From positions 224,001 through 288,000 of the forward strand of contig CAWFAK010000012.1 of assembly GCA_963813715.1 (NCBI GenBank): DNA of 64,000 nucleotides, written 5' to 3'. This DNA is from an uncultured Planctomycetaceae bacterium. Lineage in GTDB: Bacteria; Planctomycetota; Planctomycetia; Planctomycetales; Planctomycetaceae. The first letter of the stretch is position 1, and every line of letters begins with the position of its first letter. Position numbers: made by a program. This document shows positions 41,601 through 44,600 of the stretch, one piece after another.

Positions 41601-44600
41601 GCAACGTAGACCAACCCATATAAGAGGAATCCCGCGCCCGGCCCGGCAAACGAGATCAATACTGAGCGCCCCGTCGTGTGGCCGGACGTGGGACGGTAAA
41701 CGGCCAAGCCGCCGAAGCCATACAAGTAAACCTGGGGTGGCCAGCCGCAGGCGAGTGCCGTCAGCGCGTGACCCATCTCGTGCACGAGGATCGACACAAA
41801 CAGACAGCCGATCCAGATGAATAGCAGACTGATCCGGTCTTCGCTGTTCTCATGCCAGCCAGTGATCAGCCCGGCCAGCCAGAACCAGGGCGTCACGGCG
41901 ACGGGAATGCCGAACAGGCGAAATCGCAGGTCGTAGGGGGTCGTCCCGACCGATCCGAACATGTCGCGTCAACTTCCTGCTCTGACCGCCTCAATTGGTC
42001 GCGTTTGCCGTGCGGGTCGGCCGGCGTTCGGGGATTGACCCATTCGCCCGACCGACTAGGATATGCACAACGTGGCCGGCCGGTCGCACAAGCTCGGTTC
42101 GCTTCGCCTTAACCGGCGTTGCGAACGCTGCGGGGTTACCCCGTGGTCGCAACATTGTATCCATTTCGTGGCGTGAATGACCTCCTCGGCAGACCATACC
42201 GAGTAGGACATTCGGCACAGGACCCGTTGTGCAGCCCGCCGGCCATGCTCTTTGGATCCCCCCCGCATGGGGCTCTTCGATTTCTTCTGGCGGCTGTTTT
42301 CCCCGCGTCCCTCTCGACCTGAGCCGCGTGCCCCCCGCGCGGCAAGCGCCGCCGCAAGCCCTGGCTGGTCCCGCTGCGTCGACAAGTCGGCAGCACGACC
42401 TGGGAACTCAATAGCACCGTTCGCACCGCCACGCCGCCCTATGCCTTCGCACGGCTCGGAGTCGGCACCGATCGTTACCTCGACCTGTCGCAGGACGGCA
42501 GCGACGAGCGTCTGGCTCGCCACGCGTTCCCCGTCTTTCGCACGCCCGAGCAATTGGCCGCGTGGCTCGAGCTGCCGATGGGCCGCCTCGCCTGGCTCGT
42601 GCACCGCTATGCGGAAGACTCGCGTCCGCAGAACGAGCGCGACGCGCACTACCACTATCGCTGGATCAGCAAGCGGCGCGGCGGCCGACGCCTGATCGAA
42701 TCGCCCAAGCTCACGCTGAAGACCGCCCAAAAGCGGATCCTCCGCGAGATTCTCAACAAGGTGCCCCCGCACGACGACGGCCCACGGCTTCGCGGCCGGC
42801 CGCTCGATCCTCACCAACGCGCAGCCCCACGTGAAGCAGGCCGTGCTGGTAAAGTTCGACCTGGAAAACTTTTACCCCAGCGTCACCCTCTCCCGCGTGA
42901 CGGCCATCTTTCGCAGCCTGGGCTACAGTCGTGAAGCGTCCATTTGGCTGGCGCGGCTCACGACGTCGGCCCTGCCGGCCAACATGCCCTTCGTGAAGCA
43001 AGAACCTTCGGCCGTGCTGCCCTACCTCAAACGACATCTGCCGCAAGGCGCGCCGACTTCGCCGGCGCTCGCGAACCTGTCGGCCTATTCGCTCGACGTG
43101 CGACTCTCCGGCCTGGCCCGCTCGTTCGGCGCGACCTATACCCGCTATGCCGACGATCTCACTTTTTCCGGACCGCCGCGGTTCGGCACGTCGCTCCGCG
43201 ATTTCATCCCGCTTGTGTCGCAAATCGTGCGGCAGGAGCGGTTCCGTCTGAACGGAGCCAAGCGGAAGGTGCTCCGCTCGAGCGGCCGGCTGGTCGTCAC
43301 GGGGGTCGTGGTCAACGAAAAGCTCAACGTCTCGCGTCGCGAGTTCGACCGGCTGAAGGCCGTGCTGACCAACTGCCTCCGCCAAGGCCCCTCGACGCAG
43401 AACAAAGCCGGCCATCCGCACTTTGCCGCCCATCTACGCGGACGCGTCGCCCAGATGACCCAGCTCAATTCGGCCCGCGGTGCCCGACTCCTGGCGATTT
43501 ACAATCAAATCGATTGGAATCGTTAGAAGCTAGGAACGCTTCGCATGCTCCGCGAATTGCTGCTGATCTACATCACTCGTCCGATGGCGCGGCTGATCAT
43601 CCGCATGGGGGCCCTCCCCGCGCTGCGATTCTGCTTTCACCACGTGCGGGCGCTGGAACGACTCAACGACGAGTTGGAGAAGGATCTGGCCGAATGGATC
43701 CGCGGCTCGCTGTTGTTGCTCTTGATCACCGCCAACATGGAAGTGCTGCTCTGGCACAAGCTGATTCCTTACCCCGATTTGCTCGACGCCCACAAATGGT
43801 TCGGCGTCGGCCTGCGGATCATGCTGGCGATCGCCGTCATTCAAATGATGCCCGACCAGGAGCTGTTCACGGTCATTCACCCCGGCCCGCGAATCCCAAA
43901 GTTTCCCCCCTGCACCTCGCTGGCGGAAAAATTGCGGCTGTGCGCGAAGCCGGTGGGTCTCGGCATGTTCTGGCAGCACCTCAGCCGCTCTTCGCCCGTG
44001 TTCGCGATCCTGGCCGTGATCTTCACCGGCTGGATCGGCTGGTTCTGTTATGGCATGGCCTCCCTGCAATACTTGTTCATTGGCCTGGTCACGTCGCGCG
44101 ACCGGGCGATCGATGTGCTCTTGGTCTTCGACGAACAAATGGCCGCCCGCCGACACGAGCTCGTGCGGCAAGTGACCGTGCTCACGGAGTTCACCCGGAA
44201 CGAAGCCGCCTTCGATCAGTCGGAATTGCAGGTCCACAACGACTCGCACTGCGGCGATTAATCTTCACGCGGGCCACCTGCGTAAGCTGGCGGGTGCTTT
44301 CAGAAAGCAGAAAGGTTGTCGAGCGCATGGAAATCGAAGTAGCGGGCTCGCAGCCGGTCGACATCTACCGTTTGCTGATTTCCTGCGTCACGCCACGGCC
44401 CATCGCCTGGGTGACCAGCATCGACCGGGAAGGGCGGGTGAATCTGGCGCCGTTCAGCTTCTTCAACGCGTTCGGCGCGGACCCGCCGGTGGTCGTCTTC
44501 GCTCCGAACCGACGGAGCGACGGCTCGAAAAAGGACACGCTGGCCAACGTCGAAGCGACCGGCGATTTCGTGGTCAATGCGGCCGTCGCCGAGCTGGCGG

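Follow-up and report, generated by a model that had tools for sequence, protein, structure and literature searches.

A probable stand-alone retron with mostly vertical descent in a planctomycete family

Results

Features of the locus

The window analysed here, a stretch of 64,000 nucleotides of DNA from an uncultured Planctomycetaceae bacterium, contains a locus in which a promoter, a structured RNA, a reverse transcriptase (RT) gene and a gene for a helical membrane protein follow one another on the forward strand, next to a divergent gene for an M50-family peptidase (Table 1). Other neighbours in the window are of the housekeeping kind, namely enolase-superfamily, flavin reductase, GNAT and TPR genes. 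As assembled, the reading frame of the RT gene is broken into three pieces (42267-~42341, 42323-42778 and 42780-43523).

Table 1. Position, strand and supporting evidence of the features at the locus (coordinates count from the first letter of the window).
Feature	Position	Strand	Evidence
M50-family (site-2-protease-like) peptidase gene, divergent; synteny anchor	41252..41962	-	Family domain search, neighbour survey
Sigma-70-like promoter TTGACC-16-TAGGAT	42035..42062	+	Sole promoter-like site in 41900-44400; shuffles average 0.3
msr-msd type non-coding RNA, ~175 nt	42072..42246	+	Covariance model R1, 146 bits, at one place in the source genome
a1, 5' arm of the closing stem	42072..42091	+	18 pairs with a2, both partners changed in 15; 93.9% of cells paired
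Unpaired G directly 3' of a1	42092..42092	+	Invariant in 44/44 sequences (G23)
Variable msr hairpin 1	42096..42127	+	Region of 9-39 nt across relatives, at times almost missing
Invariant hairpin CUGCGGGGUUACCCCGUGG	42128..42146	+	8 pairs, 99.1% paired, GGGG/CCCC core invariant
Long variable hairpin with conserved GUGAAU...AUUCG base	42173..42215	+	Single hairpin in 44/44, median 15 bp; all 6 base pairs compensatory
Conserved CACAGGA motif preceding a2	42216-42222	+	Alignment
a2, 3' arm of the closing stem	42227..42246	+	Alignment, 18 pairs with a1
Retron reverse transcriptase gene, ~419 aa if intact	42267..43526	+	PADLOC, PDB, fold, motifs
238-aa all-helical, 4-TM membrane-protein gene, family-specific	43545..44261	+	ORF, genome survey

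The reverse transcriptase

Profiles, sequence and predicted fold agree in placing the RT in the retron clade, as the genome-wide survey's note had proposed. The C-terminal piece matches the PADLOC models RT_other (1.7e-97), RT_outgroup (5.9e-93) and RT_XIII (3.4e-78), an intact ortholog from the same genus matches the first two at 2e-125 and 5.2e-119 and RT_XIII, in third place, at 6.2e-106, and retron models make up the top 20 or more PADLOC matches. The retron St85, TIR and Ec67 models of NCBIfam are matched at 1e-54 to 6e-50, all under their curated cut-offs. When PDB sequences are searched with phmmer, retron RTs account for 14 of the 16 matches, the best being Ec86 (2e-32), and the AF2 model of the protein (pLDDT 87.1) finds retron RTs at all Foldseek ranks from 1 to 17, again with Ec86 as the best.

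The retron motifs, defined in the excerpts of PMC7736814 as NAxxH (region X) and VTG (region Y), can be read in the window as NAQPH and VTG, together with YADD. Across 26 RT orthologs the residues N184, A185 and H188 of the first motif and Y294-A-D-D297 are invariant, whilst VTG varies, being VAG, ICG or VCG in some. Of the alignments made, A1 leaves out the divergent L031, the partial L004 and L071, and five loci of genus g59 that are nearly identical, and A3 leaves out L010, which has an internal stop, and redundant loci of genus g59.

The protein starts with a helix (MGLFDFF.. in the source genome) and continues into a basic disordered linker; in the model the helix takes up residues 3-11 and the disorder residues 12-50. 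The N-terminal extension reported earlier is thus present, and amounts to ~120 residues more than in Ec86, which has no such extension. In 31 orthologs an MGLFDFLRRLF-type motif is kept, and its mean hydrophobic moment is 0.49, a borderline value. It is missing from relatives in other families and from paralogs within the family, and a search of the other ORFs of the source genome found none with it, leaving the RT as sole carrier. On the RT_other profile (481 positions) a family ortholog (L004) covers positions 142-471 and an other-family relative (L042) positions 62-473, the latter also covering 9-407 of the 407 positions of RT_outgroup. Family orthologs leave the N-terminal domain of the clade profile (about its first 140 positions) unmatched and do not align with it over the full length. 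From these alignments, the family RT subclade appears to have swapped the usual N-terminal domain of its clade for a short amphipathic helix and a disordered basic linker, a replacement which suggests that the RT sits at the membrane.

The promoter and the structured RNA

The promoter described in the survey's note is where it was said to be, is unique in 2.5 kb and keeps its boxes, TTGAC (-35) and TAnnAT (-10), in the alignment of the relatives' upstream regions; judging by its position, the transcript would be expected to start at ~42069-42072, at the 5' end of a1.

On its own, the RNA folds at -87.8 kcal/mol (z -5.11). RNAalifold predicts 32 pairs from 44 sequences, 18 between a1 and a2, eight in the invariant hairpin and six at the base of the long hairpin, and compensatory changes occur in 24 of the 32. 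In the alignment of these sequences 93.9% of the cells are paired, compared to 37.7-44.0% with slid partners, and none of 500 shuffles equals the observed pairing on any of five measures. The covariation previously claimed for the RNA holds on these 44 sequences, and so does the statement that the RNA belongs to no Rfam family, a scan of Rfam giving chance-level matches alone, none of them near a gathering score.

Retron RNAs are laid out, in the excerpts of PMC7736814, as terminal inverted repeats (a1/a2) around one to three msr hairpins and a long msd stem, and all of these parts, a1/a2, msr hairpins and a long msd stem-loop, are present in the RNA adjacent to the RT gene. In such a layout G42092 is a candidate for the branching (priming) guanosine and the hairpin at 42173-42215 a candidate msd stem, i.e., the template of the msDNA. 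The invariant GGGGUUACCCC hairpin, which is also the part kept in other-family relatives, is likely the element that the RT recognizes. Sequence comparison and structure models together support a retron-type unit of RNA and RT.

Distribution and descent

An ortholog of the RT, at 56% identity or more and well separated from the paralogs, which do not exceed 52%, is found in 83 of 120 family genomes, and the RNA in 82 of the 120. The RNA is matched in 77 of the 83 genomes with an ortholog, at least four of the six misses being at contig ends, and it lies upstream of the RT in each of the 27 ortholog loci with upstream sequence; 17 of 20 more divergent loci have it by nhmmer, and one more by the covariance model. 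RNA and retron-clade RT go together in about 70 genomes of the family. It is in three genomes (G003, G095 and G076) that the sole strong copy of the RNA lies away from the RT, directly upstream of a multi-TM transporter-like gene in G003 and G076.

These counts bear on how widely the element was said to occur. It is common in the family, and is in 11 of 11 genomes of the host genus as previously reported, but inheritance through the whole family was an overstatement, the ortholog being missing from 37 of the 120 genomes, including the complete single-contig G008 and G063. The description as single-copy fits the RNA, with its one locus in the source genome, but not the RT, since a second, paralogous retron-like RT, also broken, lies on contig C7 of that genome. 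Near-confinement to the family stands for the ortholog subclade but not beyond it. Outside the family, RT matches are found at 44-52% identity alone, in 60 of 153 genomes. The family RNA profile gives weak partial matches in other families by nhmmer, and it takes the unfiltered covariance model to bring out full-length RNAs: run in this way, it places an RNA of the same type upstream of related RTs at 15 of 16 loci from other families, and under strict filters the type is seen in 8 of 115 other-family genomes. The RT clade and the RNA type are, by these comparisons, class-wide, and only the MGLFDFLRRLF N-terminal helix and the fixed chromosomal slot are specific to the family. No accessory gene is common to the other-family relatives across families; in four loci of family f5 a phosphoglucomutase gene lies downstream of the RT.

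The slot is marked by the M50 gene, a single-copy core gene of the family that adjoins the RT, by coordinates, in 27 genomes of many genera. Over 33 genomes, RT distances correlate with those of GyrB (Mantel r=0.587, p=1e-4; r 0.515 for pairs with GyrB distance >0.2), their means being 0.375 and 0.350, respectively. The two trees have 9 of 30 splits in common, among them clades of nine and of five genomes, compared to a random mean of 0.27 and a maximum of 3 in 2000 label shuffles. There are also 12 strongly supported conflicts, some of which may come from GyrB itself, a single marker gene and not a species tree, given that it splits a same-genus pair (G024/G105). The fixed slot across many genera, the Mantel correlation and the common splits sustain the earlier claim of vertical inheritance, and sequence comparison supports a mostly vertical descent within the family.

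The 238-aa gene and the M50 gene

What had been reported of the 238-aa ORF itself was found again: it starts ~18 nt after the RT stop (18-20 nt in the source genome and in G062), has no match in Pfam, PADLOC or NCBIfam, and none by fold, the best hits being a Foldseek E of 0.11 and a VIA-align Z of 7.8, to generic helical bundles. An Atlas search with the protein returns ‘hypothetical protein’ clusters alone. The name ‘DNA topoisomerase I’, which some of its homologs carry in their sources, is taken as propagated misannotation, since no topoisomerase family matches the protein. In the source genome the gene has the same orientation as the RT with no predicted terminator in the 19-nt gap between them, an arrangement compatible with co-transcription of the two and thus with a functional link.

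The survey's note saw in this protein the likely third component of the retron. In a tripartite retron of this kind the 238-aa protein would be an effector, restrained by the RT-msDNA and freed on phage infection; it is a conserved membrane protein, and effectors of the membrane kind occur among known retrons. The gene is co-directional with the RT and close behind it in the source genome and G062, is adjacent downstream in 34 of the 83 genomes with an RT ortholog, from many genera, and its protein and the RT N-terminal motif are confined to one and the same family. Even so, its adjacency to the RT, put by the note at 18 of 23 loci, falls to 22 of 36 loci in the wider sample, and in 44 of the 83 genomes the two genes are unlinked (17 verified on sequence, 14 of them with at least 1.4 kb downstream and three as single contigs, and 27 by placement on different contigs). 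Where they are neighbours, the gap between them runs from 19 to 572 nt. The 238-aa gene, moreover, is a family-core gene, found in all 48 good genomes of the family, even those with no RT ortholog, and in 0 of 152 genomes elsewhere in the class, and it stands directly and divergently beside M50 in 12 genomes without an RT ortholog, an adjacency seen on the DNA in four of these as well as in G043, whose RT is elsewhere. The RT has M50 but not the 238-aa gene beside it in 12 genomes and, at a similar frequency, the 238-aa gene but not M50 in 15, which is the pattern that synteny decay alone would give. With linkage to the RT this inconsistent, and with no PADLOC match for the protein, the claim for a third component does not survive the wider sample; the tripartite reading is unlikely, and the gene looks, from its genomic distribution, like a long-standing syntenic neighbour.

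The same neighbourhood could be thought to form a membrane module of three genes, in which a helix-tethered RT acts with the M50 protease and the 4-TM protein by, e.g., proteolytic release or activation. M50, retron and 238-aa gene are all adjacent in 15 genomes besides the source genome, the M50/238-aa pair is itself conserved, and the RT has its family-specific helix, with a motif unique to it within the source genome, and its disordered basic linker. The pair, however, survives without the RT and the RT survives away from both, and the hydrophobic moment of the helix is no better than borderline, so that we consider such a module very unlikely. It is hardly easier, and still quite unlikely, to see here a domesticated retron whose membrane-tethered RT-msDNA works with M50 and the 4-TM protein in something like regulated proteolysis, and not a mobile abortive-infection cassette.

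Frameshifts in the source assembly

The RT of the source genome contains two indels, one near 42341 and one at 42775/6. Public contigs that are nearly identical are available from four runs, two of DNA and two of RNA libraries; they have an extra C behind 42341 in the three of three runs that cover this site, and one base at 42775/6 is absent in four of four. The contigs of the RNA libraries span the RNA, the RT and the start of the 238-aa gene, and are uninformative on transcription, strand and ends. Both indels being missing from the contigs of all four runs, as had been noted before, the frameshifts are most likely assembly errors. For the element to be a decaying pseudogene, both would have to be real. 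The assembled window does require two frame changes, and the paralogous RT on C7 is broken too, but the pieces are otherwise undamaged and keep 90% identity to the intact copy in G062, and the source assembly combines 18 contigs with a completeness of 82.6%, truncated RT matches being found also in several few-contig, low-completeness assemblies of the genus, as indel-prone assembly predicts. Decay of the element is, in our view, highly improbable.

Discussion

The interpretation that we favour, with a probability of roughly three in four, is that the locus is a stand-alone retron, consisting of promoter, msr-msd RNA and RT, and inherited mostly vertically within the host family. We take it to be a host-domesticated element, maintained in the manner of a core gene, and not a mobile defence cassette. 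There is very little chance that the structured RNA acts in cis as a leader, or is of some other non-retron kind, and that the RT makes no branched msDNA from it, for although it belongs to no Rfam family and its strong copy lies away from the RT in the three genomes mentioned above, its a1/a2 stem, invariant unpaired G and long terminal hairpin follow the canonical msr-msd layout (excerpts of PMC7736814), it accompanies a retron-clade RT in the family and in nearly all of the other-family loci, and RNA and RT co-occur even when unlinked.

If the stand-alone retron works as the anatomy of the locus and established retron biochemistry would have it, transcription would begin at a1, and the pairing of a1 with a2 would place the invariant G42092 beside the 3' part of the RNA. 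The RT would then dock on the invariant GGGGUUACCCC hairpin, prime from the 2'-OH of G42092 and copy the region just 5' of a2, via CACAGGA and the hairpin at 42173-42215, into a branched msDNA of ~60-80 nt. In the genome, the unit sits in the intergenic slot between the divergent family-core membrane-protein genes, M50 and 238-aa; it would have been lost from this slot in some lineages, and its RNA and RT genes have become separated in two genera.

The group to which this retron belongs is probably not a new one. We take the RT_other/RT_outgroup relatives, RT_other and RT_outgroup being the best models for the RT and for its relatives in other families, to be the stand-alone clade 11 of Mestre 2020 (clade11-A/B in the SPIRE survey), an already catalogued group, equating the two by names and by the excerpts of PMC7736814 and PMC13712802. 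Clade 11 is described in the former as an effector-less ‘(msr-msd)-RT cassette’ and in the excerpts of both as mainly actinobacterial and ‘heterogeneous/low priority’, whilst 86% of the low-confidence clade11-B candidates of the SPIRE survey of 2026 are given as Planctomycetota (excerpts of PMC13712802). The Outgroup A and B covariance models published for the RNAs of the clade are absent from Rfam. Like clade 11, the present retron has, directly upstream of the RT, an RNA in which a1/a2 enclose short msr hairpins and a long msd stem, and lacks a conserved accessory gene. It differs in the N-terminus of the RT, where the family orthologs have MGLFDFLRRLF and the basic linker instead of the first ~140 profile positions, and in its family-wide vertical descent and fixed chromosomal slot, which the excerpts of PMC7736814 and PMC13712802 do not report for the clade.

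The classic vertically inherited retrons are Mx162 and Sa163 of the myxobacteria, Mestre type XIII (excerpts of PMC6868368 and PMC7736814), and the likeness is in the descent, vertical within a bacterial lineage and not patchy. RT_XIII is, in addition, the third-best PADLOC model, and the N-terminally extended RT shares with that profile the region around ‘GLP..TP.ELA.WL’. Type XIII is, however, defined in the excerpts of PMC7736814 by the proteins encoded next to the RT, a SWIM Zn-finger/winged-helix one (cluster 114) and, as a rule, also one with ARM/HEAT repeats, and no SWIM/winged-helix or ARM/HEAT gene lies within 1.5 kb of the present RT, where M50, the helical membrane protein and the flavin reductase are encoded; the structure of the RNA is its own, and the best RT models are others than RT_XIII. 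The closest solved structure, that of Ec86 (Eco1; Foldseek E 4.8e-23, TMt 0.79, 30% identity), shares NAxxH and YADD with the family RT but, besides the N-terminal difference, comes from a retron that uses an adjacent effector, the PDB title reading ‘in complex with its effector’.

The retron described here has several traits of a host gene, in that its chromosomal slot is the same in dozens of genera, the rate at which its RT evolves is about as low as that of GyrB, and its RNA and RT are conserved even once unlinked. To our knowledge, nearly every retron studied so far is a mobile defence cassette of patchy occurrence, with a toxin encoded next to it. The RNA and RT may be of interest to users of retrons in genome editing. 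For the biology of the family, several cultured and genetically tractable relatives probably carry the retron, and this would make the role of effector-less retrons directly testable.

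Results

The reverse transcriptase (RT) of this locus falls among those of retrons by sequence as well as by fold. Its C-terminal piece matches the PADLOC profiles RT_other, RT_outgroup and RT_XIII at 1.7e-97, 5.9e-93 and 3.4e-78, and an intact same-genus ortholog, L004 (419 aa, 90% identical), does so at 2e-125, 5.2e-119 and 6.2e-106. NCBIfam matches are to retron and other defence-RT models only, every one under the curated cut-off, and PDB sequence matches are to retron RTs (14 of 16) and DRT2 (2 of 16). With an AlphaFold2 model from 26 orthologs (pLDDT 87.1, pTM 0.81), Foldseek places retron RTs at ranks 1-17, Ec86 being on top (E 4.8e-23, TMt 0.79). 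The window RT contains NAQPH, YADD and VTG; across the 26 orthologs NA..H and YADD are invariant, and in a few of them the T of VTG is replaced. The RT is thus of the retron class, and it is under purifying selection. The wider neighbourhood holds enolase-superfamily, GNAT and TPR genes, and no signs of a defence island were found among the genes surrounding the retron in the window.

Features of the retron locus in the window, and further RNA and RT copies on other contigs (C numbers) and in comparison genomes (G numbers)
Feature	Position	Strand	Remarks
M50-family peptidase gene	41252-41962	minus, divergent	Pfam Peptidase_M50 7.6e-17
Promoter-like site TTGACC-16-TAGGAT	42035-42062	plus	no other such site within 2.5 kb
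Non-coding conserved stretch (RNA)		plus	between M50 and flavin reductase genes; RT gene 3' of it
RNA closing stem, 18 pairs	a1 42072-91 with a2 42227-46		RNAalifold on A1
Invariant RNA hairpin, 8 pairs	42128-46		RNAalifold on A1
Long RNA hairpin, 6-pair base	42173-42215		RNAalifold on A1
RT gene, three frame pieces as assembled	frame 0 from ATG 42267; frame 2 42323-42778; frame 0 42780-43523	plus	
238-aa ORF	43545-44261	plus	start 18 nt past RT stop
Flavin reductase gene	44327-44932		bounds the three plus-strand elements on the side opposite M50
Paralogous RT of G000 (L002/L003)	C7:22254-22966	minus	52% identity over core
Tandem RNA copies, G018	C8:21448-21603 and 21791-21943		both upstream of RT
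Tandem RNA copies, G055	C274:3930-4083 and 4249-4402		both upstream of RT
Tandem RNA copies, G067	C601:646-801 and 887-1041		beside M50; RT on different short contig
Unlinked RNA, G003	C35:14621-14791 (L123:1422-1592)		112 bits
Unlinked RNA, G076	C167:3932-4107 (L124:1429-1612)		104 bits
Unlinked RNA, G095	C93:34666-34839		103 bits

The RT as assembled differs from L004 by a 1-base deletion near 42341 and a 1-base insertion near 42775. Near-identical contigs from four public runs, two of soil DNA and two metatranscriptomes, carry neither, as the genome-wide survey's note had reported: an extra C stands behind 42341 in all three public runs covering the site, and one base at 42775/6 is missing in all four. 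Together with the low completeness of the source genome G000 (82.6%, in 18 contigs) and the truncated RT matches in further assemblies of the genus that have few contigs and low completeness, this makes assembly errors the probable cause of the frame breaks. An additional G follows 42018, shortly before the -35 box, in contigs of three of the four runs (X2, X10, X13), which probably marks a third indel of the assembly in the retron stretch.

Upstream of the RT gene the orthologs are alignable over about 175 nt, and an RNA profile matches there in all 27 ortholog loci with upstream sequence and in 17 of 20 more divergent ones, to which the covariance model of the RNA (R1) adds one. On an alignment of 44 RNAs (A1; one divergent locus, two partial and five near-identical ones left out), the RNAalifold structure has 32 pairs, 24 of them with compensatory changes; 93.9% of cells are paired, as against 37.7-44.0% with slid partners, and on none of five measures does any of 500 shuffles come up to the real alignment. 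The long hairpin forms as one hairpin in all 44 sequences (median 15 bp) despite its variable sequence, and G 42092, directly after a1, is unpaired and invariant. The window RNA on its own folds at -87.8 kcal/mol (z -5.11); no Rfam family matches it. The RNA of the locus thus covaries, has a promoter of its own and is of msr-msd type, in the canonical layout set out in PMC7736814.

R1 finds one locus in G000 and matches in 82 of 120 family genomes; RNA and RT ortholog occur together in 77 of the 83 genomes with the ortholog, and of the other six, at least four have the locus at a contig end. Three genomes hold two tandem full-length RNA copies of 107-129 bits each (G018, G055, G067). In genera g4 and g76 the sole strong RNA copy is unlinked from the RT ortholog. 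In G003 and G076, the two genomes inspected on sequence, it stands directly upstream of a multi-TM transporter-like ORF of about 510-550 aa without a Pfam match, and no RNA was found upstream of RT there, even with filters off. In these cases both RNA and RT are still intact, suggesting action of the RNA in trans.

A sharply set-off band of RT orthologs, at 56% identity or more, covers 83 of 120 family genomes, the paralogs lying at 37-52%; the genus has the RT in 11 of 11 genomes. In a class sample the ortholog is in 46 of 47 family genomes, as against matches of only 44-52% in 60 of 153 genomes of 18 other families; the order contains no family other than the host family. The RNA occurs outside the family as well. 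At 15 of 16 loci of other families, R1 with filters off matches a full-length RNA immediately upstream of the related RT (E 2.4e-10 to 2.6e-4), and it matches another adjoining a family paralog; with stricter whole-genome filters it matches 33 of 35 family genomes versus 8 of 115 genomes of other families, each other-family match that was set against the RT coordinates lying beside a related RT. As the other-family RTs also match over the full length of the RT_outgroup profile (positions 9-407 of 407), the RNA and RT type is class-wide. The survey's view that the retron is nearly confined to the family therefore fails, and presence in the whole family was too strong a claim, the ortholog being missing from 37 of 120 genomes, complete ones among them. 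Its single copy holds for the one R1 locus and not for the RT: G000 has a second, paralogous retron-like RT on C7, also frameshifted and adjoining an ORF identified by eye as an IS200-like transposase, with an R1 match just upstream too weak to count (13 bits, E 0.1).

What does set the family orthologs apart is the N-terminus. MGLFDFLRRLF or a close variant, followed by a low-complexity basic linker, opens all 31 full-length, start-mapped orthologs, and in G000 this motif occurs in the RT only. In the AlphaFold2 model residues 3-11 are helical and 12-50 disordered. Over residues 2-13 the hydrophobic moment averages 0.49, a borderline value for a helix of the surface-seeking kind. The helix may resemble the membrane-binding N-terminal helices of PspA/Vipp1-type proteins. 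Other-family relatives and family paralogs have a different, folded N-terminal domain, which corresponds to the family orthologs aligning to RT_other only from profile position 142.

Discussion

If the retron was inherited vertically, as the survey held, its divergence should follow that of a marker gene, and for GyrB it largely does. Across 33 genomes the pairwise distances of GyrB correlate with those of the 248-aa C-terminal RT piece (Mantel r 0.587, p=1e-4, 9999 permutations), also for deep pairs only (r 0.515), and mean divergence is 0.375 for RT, near the 0.350 of GyrB. Of 30 splits, the FastTree trees have 9 in common, among them clades of 9 and 5 genomes; 2000 label shuffles average 0.27 shared splits and never exceed 3. 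Twelve conflicts are strongly supported, and GyrB, which splits a same-genus pair (G024/G105) that RT unites, accounts for at least part of them. The M50 gene, of which 112 of 120 family genomes hold a single copy, lies just upstream of RT in 27 of them by coordinates. Vertical descent is thus well supported, with one marker gene as its basis.

The 238-aa protein had been proposed as the likely third component. It is genuine and conserved, 36 columns being invariant across 21 sequences, and is an all-helical membrane protein (AlphaFold2 pLDDT 78.8) for which family and structure searches gave no match. It is found in 100 of 120 family genomes and, in the class sample, in 48 of 48 family genomes versus 0 of 152 genomes of 18 other families. 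Several public records of homologs of about 240-270 aa (P0059, P0069, P0070, P0083, P0109, P0116) are named 'DNA topoisomerase I', probably a propagated misannotation, no topoisomerase family matching.

Coordinates of RT, partner and M50, cross-tabulated by hand in the 83 RT-ortholog genomes, speak against such a component. The partner is adjacent and downstream of RT in 34, elsewhere in 44 (17 verified, 14 on flanking sequence and three as single-contig genomes) and not found in five. M50, retron and partner stand together in 15 genomes besides G000, M50 and retron without partner in 12, and retron and partner without M50 in 15. In 12 genomes without an RT ortholog (G063, G071, G008, G097, G084, G115, G025, G106, G119, G050, G006, G054; e.g., loci L126-L129) M50 and partner are directly adjacent and divergent. 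This was confirmed on DNA in four of them and in G043, whose RT is elsewhere; the spacing without retron is about 200-340 nt, and no RT, and no R1 match above 10 bits, lies between the two genes in these five. The retron thus sits between the genes of an M50-partner pair that is older than it or independent of it and that may be functional in its own right, and the adjacency of the partner is explicable without a functional link to RT. Given the short gap and the lack of a predicted terminator between RT and partner in G000, such a link is conceivable. Metatranscriptome contigs (runs X10, X13) match the partner from its start codon (window 43544-43545), where 67 unrelated bases stand upstream in place of the RT 3' end. 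The partner gene may thus lack a directly preceding RT in a related strain.

RNA and RT, then, co-occur and descend mostly vertically, with no consistently linked effector. The retron behaves like a core gene, which speaks against a classic mobile abortive-infection cassette, and we put the probability that it is, in identity and history, a domesticated stand-alone retron at about three in four. Priming would occur at G42092, giving an msDNA of perhaps 60-80 nt whose template would be the stretch 5' of a2; the invariant hairpin might be what the RT recognises, and the N-terminal helix could hold the RT at the membrane.

'Outgroup'/clade 11 retrons are stand-alone (msr-msd)-RT cassettes according to Mestre et al. 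(PMC7736814), and a 2026 survey (PMC13712802) has low-confidence clade11-B candidates that are mostly Planctomycetota and ranked 'low priority'. We take the RNA and RT type to belong to these catalogued retrons; the available portions of the retron-planctomycete literature, these two papers included, yielded no description of family-wide vertical descent of the unit. The survey's retron, with its covarying RNA of a1/a2 stem and invariant hairpin upstream of a retron-class RT, is genuine and illustrates vertical inheritance well. As far as those sources extend, it is not a new kind of retron, but a family-specific variant of a clade that we take as already catalogued.
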